Below are positions 23,023 to 55,907 of a stretch of 64,000 nucleotides of DNA, piece after piece (within the stretch, counting starts at the first letter, position 1; each line of letters starts with the position of its first letter). This DNA comes from Octopus vulgaris (Eukaryota): positions 24,490,001-24,554,000 of the forward strand of contig OX597842.1 of assembly GCA_951406725.2 (NCBI GenBank), written 5' to 3'. A model generated the notes under the pieces. The model had not been told where the DNA came from. It saw only the letters and a list, made by a program, of their open reading frames with translations, and searched no databases. The translations under genes were made by a program, and so were the position numbers.

Positions 23023-26000
23023 TCTCTCTATATATAAACGGCAGTTTGTCTGTCCGTGTGTCTGTCAGGTTGTACCCTCACCCTGACCACGGCTTTCAAA
23101 CGATTCTGATGAAACTTGACACACACATAGCCCAATGTCATAATTCAAAACTAACGCAGCGAAAATTTTGAAAAGTTCCCCCAGTTCTGAAAAAAATTGA
23201 TAAATTCGACATGGGGTCGAGAATCAGAAACACAAACCACAGACTGTCTAGGGGACGCAACTCAGCCTTTTTAACTCTGACCATCAATAAATCCCAAGGC
23301 CAAACGCTACAAGTCGCTGGGTTACAGTTGGGCGAACAGTGCTTCGGCCACGGTCAACTCTACGTGGGCTGTTCACGCGTTGGGAGGCGCAATGATGTTT
23401 TCATGTTTTCGCCCAAACGGACAGCTAGGAACATCGTATACACAGACGTATTCGAGTGAAGACAAGACATTGCAACCTACAAAATCGATAACCTCGGCAT
23501 GGGGTCGAGAATCTAAGCTTTTTATATGCAACACATTATCTATGGTAGTTTTCGCAACTTGCAATCGATTTTCACAGAACTCATGGGGAAGCTTAATGTT
23601 ACCCTAAGAAACTCAATTCTGACGTTAGTTTTCCATGCAATACCTTACCATCAGAAACAATCGATAAAATCATGCCATTTTGGGAAATCGCGTTCAAATT
23701 CAAGATGACATATTTTTGACAATATCTTTCACAAATTGGCAGAAATTTCTTTTTTTATTCACAGCAAGCATCATGTCTGCTCCAAGGAGCTATATAGCCC
23801 TTTTTATTCCAATAGGATACATTATTGGAAAAAATCGGTTAATTAAATCATGTGTGGCACACATAGCAAACTGATTTGTGTATTAAACACAAACCAGACT
23901 GTCTAGGGGACGCAACTCGACCTTTTTAGCTATCGATAATTCGATCCAACCAATTCCTACCAGGAAGAAATTACATTCGAGACTTCACCCCCAACACTTC
24001 TGCTAATAGCTGCTGCAGGCGCAAGTTATTCGAATACTTTTTTTGTTTACACTTTCTTTATAACTACCACCCCAAACGTTTTACCTTAAATTTTTGACGT
24101 ACCCTAAGGGTCCTCGGACACTACTTGCAAACTCTTGGTTTATTACAAACCGCTTTTGTCGTGTGCATCAAAAAACCTTTTCCATTCGTTTGTTCAGTTT
24201 TGTCACTTTTGACTTTTTCGCTGTTGTCACTCACATTGCTGCCCGCTTTTTTGCCGTTTTTGTACATTTTTATACATTTTGGGATACTTACCCCACAAGC
24301 TCCTTTTTATTACACCTTTACCAAACACATTGCTATCCACCAAAATACTTACCTCACGTGTTCCTTTTTATTACACCTTTGCCAAACACATTGCTATCCA
24401 CCAAAATGCCACCCAAGAAGAGAAGGACCCTCCTCAGCCCTCGGACGGCCAAGGCATCAGCTGCTAGGGCTAGAAGGGCACGCGAGACCCACGAGGAAAC
24501 CGCCTTGCGCCTCTCGCAAAAAGCTTCCCGTTCTGCCGCTGCTCAGGCATCTGAAACTACTAGCGACCATTCTACCCGACTTGCAAGGGTCGCAGCGTAC
24601 AGATCTTCCCTCCGCTCAAGGTTGACGAAAGAGCAACAGTCCAGCCAAAACATGCGGGCTTCTTCCTGTGCTTCCATCCGCAGAGCTCGCGAGAACCCCG
24701 AACAAAGGGCCATTCGGAATGCGGCTAACGCCACTAGCACCGCCAGGACACAATCTGTCGAAACCTCACAGCAGAGGAGAACTCGCCAAGATGCTGACGC
24801 CGCAAACAAAGCCATGGCCCAATCTGCCGAAACACCTCAACAGAGGAGAGCTCGCCAAGCTGCAAACACAGCCATGGCTCGATCTGCCGAAACTCCACAC
24901 CAACGAACTATTCGGATATCCAGAAATGCCATTAACATTGCTTCTGCTAGGGCTTCAGAGGGTGCTGAGGCGAGAGCTGAAAGGCTTTCAAGGGATGCCA
25001 CTGCTACCGCTGTCGCACGTGCATCTGAATCTGCTGAGGCACGGTGCACTCGACTTGAGAGTATCAACAAACGTCGGGATATCATTCGTGGTGTACGTAC
25101 CCCTGCCCCCCGTCACAATTCCTTGAAATAATTCGAAAGTACAACTGCTCATTCCAAATGACCTCTTTCGGGGCCTAAATTCCTCCCAGAGAAGGCTGGA
25201 TGCCTACTTTCAAAGTGCAGGGACAGGTCTACCATCTTATTGGGTCACTTCTGCCAGACGAGATTCAGCAGTCTTCTTTCTTCCAAATCTACTTCATTGC
25301 CGACTACAACCAGCAGGTTGATGCACGCCTTGGAATAACACCGGGTACATGCTATGTTCCCCGCAAAGACGTTCTTCTCCGTCTCCAAACCATGCTTCAT
25401 GATATCAACAGCTACGTCTGCAGCTTCAGGTATGCCTTGGACAGTGCTCCGTCTCCAAACTTTACCGTTGTCATTGATGCTGATAAACGACCCCACCGGG
25501 AGCATGAACGCCGTTTCAACGCACCTGCGTGCAACGAAATTGTCGCAGTCATACATGGAGAGCAACACAACAGCCGTGACATAATCATCTCCTCCCGTGG
25601 TAACAGCCTACGCAGGATCAGCGAGATTCATAGATCTTATGACGCGCTTCAGTATCCATTGCTTTTCCCTTATGGGGAAGACGGTTACCACTTCGGAATT
25701 CCTTTACGGCAGCCCTCCAATCAAACTACTGCGGCATCAAAGACGGTTTCCTGCAGGGCGTTCTACTCATATCGGTTCATGGTCAGGGAGGGTGAGTTCA
25801 GCTTATTGCCCCGTTGTCGTCAGCTATTCAACCAGTTCGCCGTCGACATGGCCGCCAAAATGGAATCGGAAAGGCTGCTATACATTAAACTTAATCAGAC
25901 CAAACTTCGCTCCGATTCCTACATTCATCTCCGTGATGGCTTGCAACAAGAAAATGACCCTCGCAACATCGGCAAGCCATGCATTCTACCCTCCACCTTC

Positions 26001-29000
26001 ACGGGAGGACCGCGATATATGCGTGAAAGGACCCAAGACGCCTTGACCTACGTACGCATTTACGGCAGGCTGGACCTCTTTATCACCTACACGTGCAATC
26101 CCAGCTGCGACGGAATCACTCGGGAACTCCTCCCGGGTCAATCTCACACCCATCGACACGACATCGTTGCTAGGGTTTTCCGTCTGAATTTGGGCAAAAT
26201 GAAGGATTTGATAGTTAAGGGTCAGATTTTCGGGCACGTCAGGTGCCACATGTTTTCGGTCGAGTGGCAAAAGAGGGGCTTTCCACATGCTCACATCTTA
26301 ATTTGGCTAACTCATAAAATCGAGACTAATGACATTGACAAATTCATTTCCGCCGAGATTCCTGACCCCGAACTGTACGAAATTGTCCGTACTACCATGG
26401 TACACGGGCCCTGTGGACCAAATTACGCCAACACACCATGCTGCAAAAACGGATTAGCCTGCTCAAAGGGATTCCCTAAATGGTTCACTTTGGAGGCTCA
26501 AACAGGCGGCGATGGGTATCCGCTGTACAAACGAAGGAGTCCAGCCAATGGAGGCCGCACGATTACGGTTGGGCGACATCAAGTGGACAACAGCTACATT
26601 GTCCCCTACTGTCCGCTCCTGTCGAAGATATTCAAAGCCCACGTCAACGTTGAGTTCTGCAGCTCCATCAGGTCAATACAATATGTCTGCAAATATATCA
26701 ACAAAGGCAGCGATGCTGCCATGTTCAGCATCCAGAGGACCACCAGTCGCGACGAAGTGTCCAATTACTTGGCTGGCCGGTACCTCAGCAGCAACGAAGC
26801 GTTTTGGCGCATTTACGGCTTCCCGCTCCATCAGAGACACCCGGCTGTGGTGCAGCTTGCTGTACACTTGGAAAATGGACAGCGGATTTACTTCACAGAG
26901 CAAAGTGCTGTGCAGATAGCCACCAGCCCTAAAGACACAACCTTGACTGGTTTCTTCAAATTATGCCAACGTGATGACTTCGCTCGAACGCTTTTGTACC
27001 CACAGGTCCCATCGTACTTCGTGTGGTCTAAAAACACCTGGGTTCGACGGAAATCCGGCAAAAACGTTGAAGGCTTCCCAGGCGTCAAGTTTGACTCCTG
27101 CCTGGGTCGAGTTTACAACATCCCGCCAAACCAGCAAGAATGCTTCTACCTCCGTCTCCTTCTAGATGAGGTCACTGGTCCGACAGGTTTCGGCAATATA
27201 CGTACCGTCAATGGGGTTCTGTGCGACACCTTCAGGGAAGCATGTATGAGACTTGGCCTTCTAGAGGATGACTCCCAGTGAGACGCCACAATAGCAGAGG
27301 GCGCTTTATTGCAAACGCCTTCGGCCCTACGACATCTTTTCGCAATCCTTCTTCAAAAATGTCAGCTTAGTGACCCACTAAGTCTCTGGATGAAATACAG
27401 GGATAACATGTCGCACGACTTCTTACGTACGGCTCAGCAACACTGCCCTTCCGCCGAGATCACGTTCACCAACTTCATTTACAATTTTGCGCTCATTCAA
27501 CTCGAAGACGCTGTCATCGATATGGGTGGGTCTGCTTTAACAGAGTACGGCCTTCCACCACCCACACGTGAACACGCCAATGTTATGTCTGCTGAATTGT
27601 TACGCGAAACTTCCTACTGCATTGAGGAACTGCACCAGTACGTCCAAGATAATGAACCACGACTGCTTCCAGACCAGCGCATAGCCTACAACACCATTGT
27701 AGACTCTGTCAGACAGCAACGTGGGGGGATTTTCTTCCTTGATGCACCCGGCGGCACTGGCAAACCTTCGTCACTAAACTAATTCTGGCGGAGGTCAGAC
27801 GCAACACGGACATTGCCCTGGCTGTAGCTTCCTCTGGTATCGCGGCCACGTTGCTTCCGGGTGGCAGAACCGCCCACTCTGCCTTCAGACTCCCGCTCGA
27901 TCTGGCAAAGTCCGAGTCACCTATTTGCAACATCGCCAAGAACTCAGAACAGGCCGACATTCTGCGCAGATGCAAACTCATCGTATGGGACGAGTGCACT
28001 ATGGCACACAAAGGCGCCCTTGAGGCACTGGACAGGTCCCTGCAAGACATCAGAAACTCTACGGCCCCCATGGGAGGATTAACTTTACTTCTTTCAGGAG
28101 ACTTCAGGCAGACTCTACCTGTTATTCCAAAAGGAACCCGTGCCGATGCCGTGCGCGCGTGCCTTAAGTCGTCAGCTCTTTGGGCACATGTGCGGCCCTT
28201 GCACCTCCAAACTAACATGCGCGCGCAGTTGATTGGTGACAGCGGATCCGCTGCATTCTCCAGGGACCTCTTATCACTCGGTGAAAATAGGATGCTGGCT
28301 GATGCGGATGGCTGCGTTCAATTGGACTCACTTTGCACCATTGTCGACACCCCTGCTAGCCTCCGGGACGCTGTCTTCCACGACCTACAAAACAATTTAC
28401 GCGACCTAAAATGGCTGGCAGGCAGAGCTATTCACGCACCCAAAAATACAACCGTCAACTCTATCAATATCCAGCTACTTGAAGCTATTCCTGGTGATGT
28501 CCACGTCTACAAATCTATTGATCGGACAGCAGACCCCGCCGAGCTTGCCGATTATCCTGTTGAATTCCTGAATTCACTTGAACCGCCAGGCCTGCCGCCA
28601 CACATCCTGAAGTTAAAAGTCGGTGCGCCCATTATGCTCATCAGGAATTTGGTTCCACCTAAACAGTGCAACGGCACACGTTTGGTTGTGAAACATTTGG
28701 CACCACATTTAATAACGGCCACAATACTTACCGGTTGTGGGAAGGGAGAGGATGTCTTCATTCCACGGATGCACCTTCAACAGTCGGGCGCTGACCTACC
28801 AATCCACTTCAGGCGTTCTCAGTTTCCTGTTAAACTCTGCTTCGCAATGTCCATCAATAAATCCCAAGGCCAAACGCTACAAGTCGCTGGGTTACATTTG
28901 GGCGAACAGTGCTTCGCCCACGGTCAACTCTACGTGGGCTATTCACGCGTTGGGAGGCGCAATGATGTTTTCATGTTTTCGGCCAAAGGGACAGCTAGGA

Positions 29001-29151
29001 ACATCGTATATACAGAAGTATTCGAGTGAAGACAAGACATTGCAACGTCCACTTGCACCTTCGTTCCCTGGAGGGAAAGGACTACATTGGGATTAGTCGT
29101 TGCCTACTAGGGGCTCTTACATACCCGGGCAATGCCGGGCTATGCTGCTAG
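23023..29151 (+). mobile_element. Near full-length Helitron (rolling-circle transposon), decayed
   Basis: 5' TC(TCTCTATATATAAA), 3' GC-rich hairpin cccgggcaatgccggg (29124-29139) then CTAG (29148-29151), inserted between A and T with no target duplication; encodes RepHel. Confidence 0.95.
24406..29029 (+). pseudogene. Helitron RepHel transposase (STPR-like repeats, HUH Rep, PIF1-family helicase), broken
   Basis: Likely start MPPKKRR at 24406; ETxxQRxxR repeats; Rep motifs LFITYTCNP, VEWQKRGFPHAHILIW, YVCKYINKG; helicase motifs DAPGGTGK, IVWDE, GDFRQTLPV, FAMSINKSQGQTL. Lesions: deletion/frameshift ~25110, stop ~25176, TGA 27279-27281, frameshift ~27768. Confidence 0.93.
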
Positions 29152-46010: not shown

Positions 46011-46981
<971 letters not shown>

Positions 46982-49620: not shown

Positions 49621-49736
49621 CAATTAACATCGATGTCAAACTAGCAACTTTTAAAACTTTTTACTTTTGTTTGGAGTTTCGAATTAGCCAGGTTAATCGG
49701 CTTCTGCTAAAAAATAAAATATATATTACATCTTAC

Positions 49737-50030
49737 CTGTTTTGATAAATAGATCATATGTTACGATAATTAGATTAATGTGAATTAATGTTAATTACAC
49801 AAAAGAGCAATTAACGGGAATATAGTTTAAACACACTATAAAAGTCGGCATGGAAACTCAACGAAACGAACTAAAATATCCTGATGTCGTATGCCGCGTA
49901 TTACTACACATTTGTCGGATGATAAAACTGAGTTGGTAAATTTTTTATGTTTTATTATTGCTATAATTACTATTTAAAATTTTGAATTGTAAGAAAAAAA
50001 TCCAAATGATGGCAAAAGATACAAAACTAA
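49737..50030 (-). promoter_or_regulatory. Putative promoter/exon 1 of gene F (donor at 49736; acceptor 47316-47315)
   Basis: Diverged copy of the module that keeps cag|gtaaga. Confidence 0.5.
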
Positions 50031-50344
50031 AGCTTATTTTCCAGTCGATTGCTACTTTTACGCTGTTCTGTCGTCGAACCCGTAAGTTACAGGGACGGAA
50101 AGAAACGAATCCAGCTTATCAGAGTGATGTTGGATGAGGATAGGGGGAAACATGCAGGCATCAGTGTTCGAAAACCATTGTTGGTTTGTTTATATTCCAG
50201 TAACTTAGTTGTGCAATGGAAGAGGGCGGGGGTAAAGAATACGCACACCACCCGTTTACGGTGTAAGCCTAACCCATGCGTCGCAGGAGGCGGAAGAGGT
50301 CAAGCAGGTCGCACGTGTGGTCATCGACGAAGGGACAGTTCGAG

Positions 50345-52416
50345 CAGAGATGAGAAATCGCACGTTGACGTCGGTTGTGTTTTTTTTACGCTCGTGAAAT
50401 TTGGTAAAAAAGAACAAAAAGTGAGTGGGAAAATTGTTGTTGTGGAATTTTGTACGTTTGTTGATGCGGTTTCGCGTTACACTGGTTCTACGCGTTGCAC
50501 TGTTTCTGTTCGGGCGGCCGTTTTCGGTCTGTCAGACGGAGGGATATGGACGACCACTCCCTAGTGGAGGAGTCGGAGGAAGAATGGATATTTGAGAACT
50601 TGTCGGAGACATCGACCTCTGAAGACGAGCAAATCGGTGATGTAAATAATGTGGAGATAAAAAACAGGAAAACGTACGCAGGAGTTGTAAAAAAGAAGAC
50701 GGCACAGGAAAAGGAAATAAACCTAGAAAAATTGCCAGGTTTCCAGAGGTATATGAGGAAGGACAGCGGTGAGGTGGAACTAACACCATCACCAAAGAGA
50801 AAAGAATGGTTCGAGAAAAGGACCATCATATACAGGGTATTCGCAAGCGGAACGAAAAAGATAGAAGTGGTGAATATGGAGTGGATAAATGAGGCGCTAA
50901 GAAGAACGGAAGAGGAAATCGAATTTCTGTCGAGAGGTTCAAAACATGGTACTGTAGTAGTACAGTTCAAAAGTAAGAAGGCAGCAAGGAAGAAGGCGGT
51001 GAAATCCGAGAAGGTAATACTTTTGCCTACGTATTTAAATAGAAAAATCACAAGAGTAAGGGTCGAGGGAATAGCCCCAAACGTTGAAGCCGAGTGGATT
51101 GTGGCGGCTATAATTAGCGGCCACGAGGATGAAGTGGACATCCTCCATGCCTCGGTTAAGACCGAGGGCTGGAGAGGCGTGACAGTGGAACTAAATGTGC
51201 AGGCAGAGAACGATGTACTGGTGGACCTAACAGAAAACATCAGATTGGGAGACGTGATCTTGAGAGTGTGGGTGGAGGGCAGGGCGCCCAGGTGCTATAA
51301 GTGTGGCCTGAGGGGTCACATAAGAGCCTACTGCCCTCTCCCACACAAAGAAACAGTGATCCAGGAAGAGGAGGAAACGGAGCCGGAAAAAGTTGAAGCG
51401 GAAGAACCTGAGGAGGAGAAGGAAATCCAAACTGAGTGGGAAGACGTACGGAAAAAAAGAAAAAGAAGAAGGAAAGTGAACTTTATTGAATCCCAATCCA
51501 CCCCAACACCACCCGCACCCTCTGAGCCCCATCCTTCCCCTGCAAACAAAGAGCCCACCCATTCCCCACCTACAAGAAAACCTAAAAACGCAGACACACA
51601 GATGATACAAGAGCCCAAGCCCCATACTTTATGTTTTATAAAAAAGGAAGACAATGTGAAGCCGACAAGTATCTTTGGTGAAAAATCATGGTATGAGGGA
51701 GAAGATGGAAGTTACATGGCGATGAAAGGTGAAATAATGGACGCAAGGAAGATTTTGTCGGAAATAAAGGGTGTAGAAGCGATTGAGGTGGAATTTTCGG
51801 ATGAGAAGATAAAAGAGTGTGAAGAGATATTTGAGATAGTATTAGGAAAGGAGGGGCTTTTGATTGGAGATGATAGGTGACGAAGGGTTGTGAAGGACAG
51901 GTAAGTGATGCTGGCGGATGGGGCCGTTAGCATCGCTTTCATATTACCATTTTTTCATTTAAAATTCATTTTTCATATTATTAATTATAATGTTCTATGT
52001 CCCCAATGTTTTGTAATGTCCCCTCTCCGTCGCCCCTTGTGGGTAATAAAAAATCAGAGATTAGAAATCGCACGTTGACGTCGGTTGTGTTTTTTATACG
52101 CTCGTGAAATTTGGTAAAAAAGAACAAAAAGTGAGTGGGAAAATTGTTGTTGTTGTGGAATTTTGTACGTTTGTTGATGCGGTTTCGCGTTACACTGGTT
52201 CTACGCGTTGCACTGTTTCTGTTCGGGCGGCCGTTTTCGGTCTGTCAGACAGAGGGAGATGGACGACCACTCCCTAGTGGAGGAGTCGGAGGAGGAATGG
52301 ATATTTGAGACCTTGTCGGAGGCATCGACCTCTGAAGACGAGCAAATCATATTATTAATTATAATGTTCTATGTCCCCTCTGCATCGCCCCTTGTGAGTA
52401 ATAAAAAAATCAGAGA
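50345..52416 (+). mobile_element. ORF1-only retroelement with A1-ORF-B1-A2-B2 direct repeats
   Basis: A1 50351-50635 matches A2 52061-52348; B1 51973-52060 matches B2 52347-52416; CAGAGA at both outer boundaries and at the B1/A2 junction; AATAAA plus A-run in B. Confidence 0.75.
50546..51880 (+). CDS. Gag/ORF1-like protein with one CCHC zinc knuckle (Tx1/L1-type ORF1p-like), 444 aa
   Basis: Intact ORF in GC-richer DNA; TYAGVVK motif, RVWVEGRAPRCYKCGLRGHIRAYC knuckle (51293-51334), acidic tract, W..V.KKRKRRRK basic tract and Pro-rich linker. Confidence 0.8.
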   Translation: MDDHSLVEESEEEWIFENLSETSTSEDEQIGDVNNVEIKNRKTYAGVVKKKTAQEKEINLEKLPGFQRYMRKDSGEVELTPSPKRKEWFEKRTIIYRVFASGTKKIEVVNMEWINEALRRTEEEIEFLSRGSKHGTVVVQFKSKKAARKKAVKSEKVILLPTYLNRKITRVRVEGIAPNVEAEWIVAAIISGHEDEVDILHASVKTEGWRGVTVELNVQAENDVLVDLTENIRLGDVILRVWVEGRAPRCYKCGLRGHIRAYCPLPHKETVIQEEEETEPEKVEAEEPEEEKEIQTEWEDVRKKRKRRRKVNFIESQSTPTPPAPSEPHPSPANKEPTHSPPTRKPKNADTQMIQEPKPHTLCFIKKEDNVKPTSIFGEKSWYEGEDGSYMAMKGEIMDARKILSEIKGVEAIEVEFSDEKIKECEEIFEIVLGKEGLLIGDDR

Positions 52417-52929
52417 CGAGGAAGCGACAGGACGTGTGAAATTCGTAAGAGACCTCGGATCTTCGCCGAGGTAAGGCCTTTTGTATTTCTTCCTCCCGTT
52501 GCTTCTCCTTCTGTTGTCCTCTTCATCCATCACACTACACATACATACTTGTCCTTCTCATCAAGTAAACTCTTAGCAGAAAAAGAATCAGGAAAATGCC
52601 TTTTATCACACGCCTTCTTAAAAAGAATGGCGGTGACCCAGCATGGCCACAGCTCGTGAGCTGAAACTAGATGAAAATAAATAAATAAAACTAAGGGAGG
52701 TCTCTCCCGTTTTTATTTCTAATATTCTTTAAACGATTGAATTTGGATTTAATGAAAATAATATTGAATAAGACTTTGCGAGTCAGCTTTACATAATTTC
52801 TTGGGTATTGGTTAGAAAACAACCCACGGGTTTCTCACCTTAACCTTAGAAAGAAATAAACGAAGAACGACACTACAGGTTTAAAGAGGAGATCGTAAGA
52901 GTAGCAAAAAACCTGAAAATAAGTAGTCA

Positions 52930-53215
52930 GCATATACTTTTGTATTTTTTGCCATTATTCGGGGTTTTTTCATTATAATTCACATTTCGTAAACGTAATT
53001 ATAGCAATAAAAACCATTAAAAATTTACCACTTCAGTTTTAGCATCCGACAAATGCGTAGTAATAGGACGGATACAATATTCAGATTTTAGTTCGTTTCG
53101 TTGACGTTCCGTGTCGGTTTTTCTAATGTGCCTTTAAATTATATTTCCCGCCAGATCGATCCTTTCCGTAATTAACGTTAATTCATATTAAACACTAATT
53201 TATTTGTCATCACAG
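52930..53215 (+). promoter_or_regulatory. Putative promoter/exon 1 of gene G (donor GT 53216; acceptor AG 54657-54658)
   Basis: Diverged copy of the module that keeps cacag|gtaaga. Confidence 0.5.
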
Positions 53216-53427
53216 GTAAGATACAATACATGTTTTGTTTGTGGTAAAATCCGATGACCCTGGTTAATTGGAAACTCCAGACAATTGCGAAAGTTTTGAA
53301 TGTTGCTAATCTGATTTCGATATTAATTCCATTCTCCGTTAAACTTCTTGAATAATGCCAAGAAAATCTAATCTTAATTTTTACTTGGTATGTCGATGAA
53401 AAAGCACCAAATTTTTTATGTCTTTTA

Positions 53428-55022: not shown

Positions 55023-55907
55023 ATGAATCCACCGGAGATGACAAGAGAAAGAGAAAAATTATCAGACCAATGTGATATCTGTAAAAAGACTTTTTCTAAT
55101 ACAGCAAATCTCACTGTTCACAAGTGTATCGATCCAAGTGGAAAGCAATTTCACTGTGATATCTGTGGTAAATCATTCTCTAAGAAAGATAATCTTACTC
55201 ATCACAAATACATTCATACAGGAGAGAAACCATATCAATGTGGTATTTGTGGTAAATCATTCTCTAATAGGAGTAACCTTACTTGTCACAAATACATTCA
55301 TACAGGAGAGAAACCGTATCACTGCGAAATTTGTGGTAAATCATTCTCTCAAAAAGGTAGCCTAACTTGTCACAAATACATTCATACAGGAGAGAAACCA
55401 TATCAATGTGATATTTGTGGTAAATCATTCTCTCAAGGAAGTCAGCTTAAAACTCACAAATACATTCATACAGGAGAGAAACCATATCAGTGTGACATCT
55501 GTGGTAAATCATTCTCTAAGAAAGATCATCTTACTCATCACAAATACATTCATACAGGAGAGAAACTATATCAGTGTGATATCTGTGATAAATCCTTTTC
55601 ATTAAAACGTAATTTAATTACTCACAAACTTACACATACAGGTGAGAAGCCATATCACTGCAATATTTGTGGTAAATCATTCTCTCATAAGAATAGCCTT
55701 ACTTATCACAAATCAATTCATACAGGAGAGAAACCATATCACTGCAATATCTGTGGTAAATCCTTTGTAGTGAGAAGTAATTTAACTGCTCATGAACTTA
55801 CTCACACTAATGAAAGGCCATATCAGTGTGATATCTGTGATAAATCATTCTCTCATAAAAGTAACCTTACTAGACACAAATACATTCATACAGGAGAGAA
55901 ATCATAG
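55023..55907 (+). CDS. C2H2 zinc-finger protein G, ~10 fingers
   Basis: ATG 55023 ([12 protein letters not shown]), first finger atypical, 9 canonical fingers, TAG 55905-55907; more finger units follow the stop. Confidence 0.88.

Follow-up and report, generated by a model that had tools for sequence, protein, structure and literature searches.

What kind of mobile element leaves an intact open reading frame and no enzyme of its own inside a repeat arranged as A-ORF-B-A-B, and what brought it to the base at which it lies? The question is raised by positions 50345-52416 of the window, by which we mean the whole stretch of 64,000 nucleotides analyzed here (C29:24490001-24554000 of the 2.8-Gb Octopus vulgaris genome), which sits in a cluster of C2H2 zinc-finger genes. 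Our analysis leads us to favor, with some reserve, a two-unit tandem of a HAL1-like LINE derivative that was likely copied by a full-length partner and that likely landed where it did partly through flank sequence present at the two ends of its RNA.

Layout of the element in the window

An earlier reading made from the letters of the window (hereafter the sequence-only reading) had described an intact ORF of 444 aa, A1-ORF-B1-A2-B2 repeats, and three copies of a hexamer (CAGAGA), all of which are present (Table 1). The 5' 291 bp of unit 1 are repeated at 52055-52348 (96.6%) and its 3' end at 52347-52408, while the hexamer begins at 50345, 52055, and 52411. The ORF list of 50345-52416 holds no RT, endonuclease, or integrase ORF, as had been claimed. 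The description of an AATAAA followed by an A-run stands in its first part, with the poly(A) signal (52045-52050) found 165 bp past the ORF1 stop, but not in its second: the run at the end of unit 1 is just 6-7 A, and because a G interrupts it in most family copies, the element has no poly(A) tail. The first 20 bases (50345-50364) are covered by 7 of 40 scored matches, all in C29 sister units, with the other 33 beginning at query base 18-33; these bases are thus not family sequence. Elsewhere in the window, 25200-29029 (+) holds fragmented ORFs of 693, 130, and 342 aa, which we take to be Helitron-type Rep/helicase.

Table 1. Features of the insertion and its neighborhood, in positions of the window
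Feature	Position	Strand	Remark
Zinc-finger ORF head-to-head with 'G'	46340-46981	-	
Inverted arms on both sides of the insertion	49651-50069 and 52887-53300		
Solo-LTR remnant, left piece; initiator-like pentamer 50336-50340	50275..50344	+	joined to 52411-52539 in L137-L140 and dispersed copies
Left target duplication / 5' leader	50345..50364	+	3 of first 16 bases differ from empty site
Unit 1, full-length ORF1-only element (core to tail)	50365..52054	+	matches of other copies run from about query base 21 to 1709-1711
ORF1, 444 aa: acidic N-terminus, two predicted RRM-like domains, CCHC knuckle, linker, small C-terminal domain	50546..51880	+	
Consensus-type splice donor just past ORF1 stop, candidate	51901..51906	+	read from sequence
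Poly(A) signal and element end, no poly(A) tail	52045..52054	+	
Unit 2: leader and 5' 291 bp fused to 62-bp tail (internally deleted tandem copy)	52055..52410	+	
Right target duplication	52411..52426	+	same as empty site
Solo-LTR remnant, right piece; DPE-like pentamer 52430-52434, splice-donor-like site 52471	52411..52539	+	putative promoter
Downstream C2H2 zinc-finger ORF ('G')	55023..55907	+	

The A-B-A-B pattern is a tandem whose second unit has been deleted stepwise. At the junction in unit 2, base ~290 is joined to the tail at a TC microhomology, and the unit-2 tails of two sister copies, L002 and L005, retain 11 and 30 more bases than the 62-bp tail of the window, from which it follows that the unit was lost in successive steps, least in L005, further in L002, and furthest in the window. 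Junction and sister copies thus agree with the deletion at a TC microhomology that the sequence-only reading had proposed. Its further proposal, head-to-tail insertion behind a target-like leader, is also supported; unit 2 of the window may instead have come from unequal recombination. The A-ORF-B-A-B layout, which that reading expected to meet again at other loci, recurs only in segmental duplicates of the window locus.

The site at this locus is a solo LTR

Four copies on C29 are filled and have a common left flank (that of the window, L002, L003, and L005), and at four sister sites (L137-L140) the same base has no insertion, which together indicate one insertion history copied by segmental duplication. 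The head-to-head zinc-finger pair to which they belong is duplicated at least eight times across C29:24.23-24.57 Mb (four filled, four empty, mostly in opposite orientations), and L003 has lost what lay to the right of the insertion. The right duplication matches the empty site exactly, with the left copy off at 3 of 16 bases. Since the sister sites are empty at the hexamer base, the hexamer is target duplication and leader, and not the fixed end or target of a family that it had been taken for; other copies use many other sites.

The target itself is dispersed (376 candidates). Its copies measure ~315 bp, begin with TG, and end with CA, and a perfect 5-bp duplication flanks 13 of 18 of them (by eye), which identifies it as a solo LTR; none of these 18 dispersed copies is filled. 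We had also considered that the right flank might simply be the first exon of a zinc-finger gene, a reading rejected because the flank is this LTR. The empty allele has two pentamers, which we take to be an initiator-like and a DPE-like motif, the second at +28 from the initiator-like A, followed by a splice donor, making a candidate promoter; by eye, the initiator-like pentamer is kept in 18 and the DPE-like one in 19 of 22 empty copies. The insertion lies between the inverted arms of the head-to-head zinc-finger gene pair. In three runs, which we guess to be of RNA, contigs span the junction between the left flank and the element, with no strand, start, or level to be had from contigs, and one larger run contains a weak joint like that of the empty site, with 20 letters on its short side. 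No splice joint from the element's donors appears among the contig matches listed.

ORF1 is predicted to bind RNA

A structure model of ORF1 built from a 29-row alignment (mean pLDDT 67, pTM 0.33) contains two confident alpha/beta domains, at aa 82-165 and 165-248. Its top Foldseek matches are tandem-RRM proteins (E 7e-5 to 1e-3), and VIA-align returned ferredoxin-like folds with Z reaching 7.8, possibly no more than a generic level. A capsid fold is absent among the Foldseek and VIA-align matches listed, though the protein may still have one. The label "gag" in the sequence-only reading finds no support in the model. The two domains are followed by a single CCHC knuckle (aa 249-264), which Pfam zf-CCHC matches at E 0.026, under its curated cut-off. 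Taken together, ORF1 is predicted to consist of two RRM-like domains and a CCHC knuckle, and to be RNA-binding. A single-sequence protein search returned nothing at E<=0.001 among 7995 candidates, and an alignment profile search found 1550 relatives, all of them unnamed. Over the whole alignment, ORF1 is 25-31% identical to the ORF1s of autonomous elements, with the CCHC invariant.

An old non-autonomous family

A genome-wide search with unit 1 gave 653 first-look candidates, of which 39 were scored, yielding 88 matches; many of these copies are ~1.7 kb long and matched at both ends. Searching with the tail gave 762 candidates, and three further subfamily queries enlarged the copy set. For 107 of the 108 distinct ORF1 cores that reach >=45% identity, the 1.3 kb downstream holds no APE, an outcome favored by the use of ORF1-only copies as queries and counted over cores with room behind them; the sole exception, L090, sits inside the APE of another LINE. 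More distant cores have an APE behind in 21 of 33 cases. In 98 units the tail follows the core, mostly at 670-720 nt, and 69 of these 98 cores are in frame. Among these 69, dN/dS is 0.39 for near-identical pairs and 0.15-0.25 once dS exceeds 0.05, in every bin as far as saturation, the pairs not being independent. ORF1 is under purifying selection. A quick tree places 21 family ORF1s on one side of a branch with SH-aLRT 99, against 7 autonomous ORF1s and one other ORF1-only type, with long branches meeting at that branch.

The ORF1-only cores, the selection, and the one-sided tree together indicate that ORF2 was lost long ago and ORF1 kept. We are nearly certain that this is an old, genome-wide, non-autonomous ORF1-only LINE family, and the same three results uphold the sequence-only reading, which had proposed such a family of Tx1/L1 type. 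A one-off deletion of an ordinary LINE is ruled out by the age of the family, its one-sided place in the tree, and its selection without ORF2.

Several other observations were made among the copies. Four loci (L222, L226, L227, and L230) hold more ORF1-only types in the same arrays, ~33-38% identical to the window ORF1. The upstream unit of L089 (C1, near 106.899 Mb) carries 59 A>G against 4 G>A changes relative to its nearest relative, and is likely edited RNA written back into DNA; it is the one unit in 94 with A>G hypermutation, from which the window copy is free. At C1:216.93-216.95 Mb, a 3.58-kb tandem repeat runs to at least 6 units, and in each of them a family copy with a truncated 5' end precedes a GT repeat.

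Full-length partners share the tail

Next to ORF1-only units, immediately before or after them, are full-length LINEs that encode a homologous ORF1, APE, RT, and zf-RVT; the two kinds meet in direct tail-to-head junctions. One partner family has 17 near-full-length 5.2-kb matches at 92-100% and one rearranged copy (18 scored), and includes intact ORF2s of 1131 aa. The last ~43 nt are common to partner and ORF1-only units (84% alike in L078). An autonomous LINE with the same ending, which the sequence-only reading had envisaged, thus exists, with the ~43-nt tail in common and mixed arrays.

The partner ORF2 is built from an APE, an RT, and a C-terminal zinc finger, the architecture that the Tx1 clade requires, and the hits in 9 partner ORFs scanned were APE, RT, and zinc finger, with none to a tyrosine recombinase. 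Its best solved relative is human L1 ORF2p (E 9e-66) and its closest named RT relative comes from Argonauta (64%), the named RT relatives being invertebrate and reptile proteins; one of the 120 RT matches listed is named "Transposon TX1 149 kDa" (38%; 35% over 421 aa). Judged by these comparisons, the partner belongs to the L1/Tx1 clade. There are several partner families, with 54-97% ORF2 identity, whose APEs differ by few residues and whose ORF1s differ more (61-89% over matched parts). Because the tail is shared, the arrays are mixed, and the insertions have target duplications, the ORF1-only element is likely copied in trans by the endonuclease-RT of these full-length Tx1/L1-type partners.

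A splice donor resembling the candidate of the window is also present just before the ORF2 start in the partners L078 and L076, and many 5' UTRs have a donor within ~80 nt as well. An abundant tRNA-like SINE ends in the family's tail (L221, C2:199395800-199402400; L075; L037) and is likely moved by the same LINE. It also occurs in tandem units of ~183 bp, where each tail is followed by the same internal SINE point.

Sites used across the family

By eye, 15 of 31 two-flank loci have a duplication of 13-19 nt at both ends; at the other 16, the duplications are short, the target is deleted, or the case is not clear. Altogether, the flanks of 103 terminal tails can be sorted into 51 classes, and some of these classes are the leaders of other elements. 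The most-used target, a captured ORF1 fragment, belongs to a repeat for which there are 1720 candidates; one base is hit in 9 of its 30 top copies (by eye), a Tx1-like preference in a family that also uses many other sites. A TATA-like word at this target was considered as a promoter and rejected, since by eye it is coding sequence of the captured fragment. Other sites hit repeatedly are the head of a SINE, the ends of mariners, an LTR followed by a gag-like ORF, zinc-finger loci, and GT repeats. Element identity is 98.8%, versus 97.3% for the left and 90-95% for the right flank, and it is the empty copies and differing junctions, not this comparison alone, that establish independent insertion.

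Target labels cluster on the element tree, with 40 changes versus a shuffled mean of 66, a clustering inflated by near-copies. They also switch between close kin and are common to distant lineages: L008, L012, and L018, which are 88-90% alike, use different sites. No cut motif common to the sites can be made out by eye. When 20 loci were scanned against Rfam, a single U6 match came up, ~1 kb upstream of an insertion (L013:330-428), so none of the 20 scanned sites is a described RNA gene. The L014/L016 and L163/L164 targets consist of tandem units of ~400-480 bp with a similar downstream segment, and share an upstream word that we presume to be YY1-like; the L014 target has no Rfam match.

How the landing site may be set

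Flank-inherited targeting is the best mechanism that we can offer for these patterns, though an unproven one. The RNA of the element would start in the upstream flank and, at its 3' side, would read through the poly(A) signal (~5-7 nt short of the element end) and on into the right duplication. In target-primed reverse transcription, its flank-derived ends would then anneal to a site that resembles them, the read-through copy pairing with the nicked strand. The leader of an existing copy would be the best next target, which would explain the head-to-tail arrays, and chance pairing with a new sequence, as with the LTR of the window, would start a new lineage. ORF1 would be kept because it is needed in cis.

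Several observations suggest that flank sequence travels with the RNA. Leaders hold pieces of the targets of other loci (that of L015 has the target of L014, that of L207 the target of L210), the internal units of L204 and L211 carry about 30 and 60 nt of target flank, and one leader is common to L004 and L073, which lie at different sites. Cleavage usually falls 10-30 nt from the poly(A) signal, so that with a signal ~5-7 nt from the end, cleavage within the element would be improbable; the absence of a poly(A) tail points the same way. At the 3' side, 40 of 103 tails have at least 9 nt, counted from the poly(A) signal, in common with the nearest relative that belongs to a different flank class, versus 0.9% of distant pairs, the pairs being non-independent and many of the "other-site" pairs being array neighbors whose leader mimics the same target. 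In addition, the truncated copy L036 has 4 extra bases that equal the start of the right flank of the window, in a comparison that covered 7 of 19 entries. In R2Ol, annealing of read-through target RNA improves integration (PMC6795142). Finally, APE domains that are 94-99% identical in DNA are found at unrelated flanks (L113/L115, L111, L219, and L220), and this, together with the first flank bases shared by close relatives, would favor inheritance of the target with the flank. The presence of distant ORF1-only lineages on the same targets also fits a shared enzyme, protein, or chromatin preference.

The family could be just as described and the target of each lineage nonetheless be fixed by the endonuclease or ORF1 of its particular partner, as in classical Tx1 elements, with target-like leaders as by-products. 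The established view puts target preference in the Tx1 clade down mainly to the endonuclease (PMC4494074). The range of partner families, with 54-97% ORF2 identity, and the convergence of unrelated ORF1-only lineages on common sites would suit such control, and as partner APEs and ORF1s do differ, protein-encoded differences may play a part. Against this stand the near-identical APE domains at unrelated flanks, the different sites of the closely alike L008, L012, and L018, and the lack of a common cut motif visible by eye, and left duplications can follow another copy instead of the local site. We regard a target fixed by the partner's proteins as unlikely.

We give still less credence to a family that targets Pol II core promoters and lives off host and transposon promoters, which would place the insertion of the window inside an LTR promoter that serves a zinc-finger gene, with the initiator on one side and the DPE on the other. 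The pentamers of the window are at the canonical 28-base spacing in the empty allele and mostly kept among its copies, and a number of sites lie 5' of a sense ORF or repeat head, including a mariner start codon (L013), a gag-like ORF behind L012, an ORF behind L011, the SINE head, and zinc-finger loci. However, other sites are not of this kind, namely an antisense mariner 3' end (L210, L240, and L241), the inside of an APE (L090) and of an ORF1 (L184), the captured ORF1 fragment, and GT microsatellites. The target LTR is unfilled in all its 18 dispersed copies, and the motifs are short and were chosen after the data had been seen. A strict initiator-DPE targeter, once entertained as the main reading, was demoted to a rival because several sites are not 5' ends.

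A split-direct-repeat (Ngaro/PAT/DIRS-type) element, for which the local A-ORF-B-A-B pattern speaks, or a one-off LINE deletion is hardly credible: that layout is confined to segmental duplicates, the majority of copies consist of one unit or of complete units in tandem, split direct repeats are excluded by the stepwise loss from unit 2, the insertions have target duplications and exact empty sites, the partners encode an APE-RT with no tyrosine recombinase in the 9 ORFs scanned, and the age, one-sided branching, and selection of the family tell against a single deletion.

Returning to flank-inherited targeting, we would tentatively extend it to a promoterless half-LINE that carries its target on its own RNA, as 5' leader and 3' read-through. 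One endonuclease could then serve dozens of heritable, switchable targets, copies that land behind start sites, as the one in the window would have done by falling between initiator and DPE in an LTR-derived zinc-finger promoter, would become the next donors, and the family might amount to a natural RNA-programmed retrotransposon.

Relation to known systems and significance

HAL1 proper descends from mammalian L1 and has a poly(A) tail. The octopus family has none, and the RT relatives of its partner are invertebrate and reptile proteins, so that it is not HAL1 sensu stricto. The two are alike in having ORF1 only, with coding capacity long kept and ORF2 supplied in trans, as is likely for the octopus element too (PMC5753468, PMC3627910, PMC5786205 for HAL1). 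Unlike HAL1, the octopus element has an RRM-RRM-CCHC-like ORF1, a Tx1-like partner, recurrent targets, target-derived leaders, and mixed tandem arrays. HeT-A and the ORF1-only telomeric Jockey elements offer another likeness, in that ORF1-only lineages beget more of their kind and form head-to-tail arrays with ORF2-bearing partners (PMC13534243, PMC5786205), whereas the octopus arrays are interstitial, at many sites, with target duplications, and from another LINE clade.

In its landing the family resembles Tx1-Mar/SINEU. For Tx1L in Tx1D, Tx1-Mar, and SINEU, other transposons are reported as insertion sites, two crocodilian Tx1 families going into LTR elements; further points in common are tandem copies set apart by a duplication, a non-autonomous passenger that shares the target, and a proposed flank-dependent transcription (PMC4494074). 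In contrast to these systems, the octopus passenger encodes an ORF1, and one family uses dozens of unrelated sites with near-identical endonucleases. In R2/R1, target sequence on the 3' end of the RNA anneals to the target and improves integration (PMC6795142); one protein-specified site is refined there, whereas here the site would be inherited and switched. The octopus family is not Ngaro/DIRS.

ORF1-only LINE derivatives have been described from three clades, Jockey, L1, and CR1 (PMC5786205). In our search of the openly accessible literature, mostly of its listings, we found no description of an old, selected Tx1-type ORF1-only family with interstitial mixed arrays, in any cephalopod or elsewhere. 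Nor was the family found in the accessible main text of a 2026 octopus repeat annotation (PMC13282606), whose supplements, or Repbase, could hold it.

The filled and empty sister copies at this locus allow a direct test of the effect of the insertion on zinc-finger gene expression. If flank RNA does set the target, this would revise the idea that Tx1 elements land where their endonuclease alone directs them, and would bear on programmable gene insertion with retrotransposon proteins.
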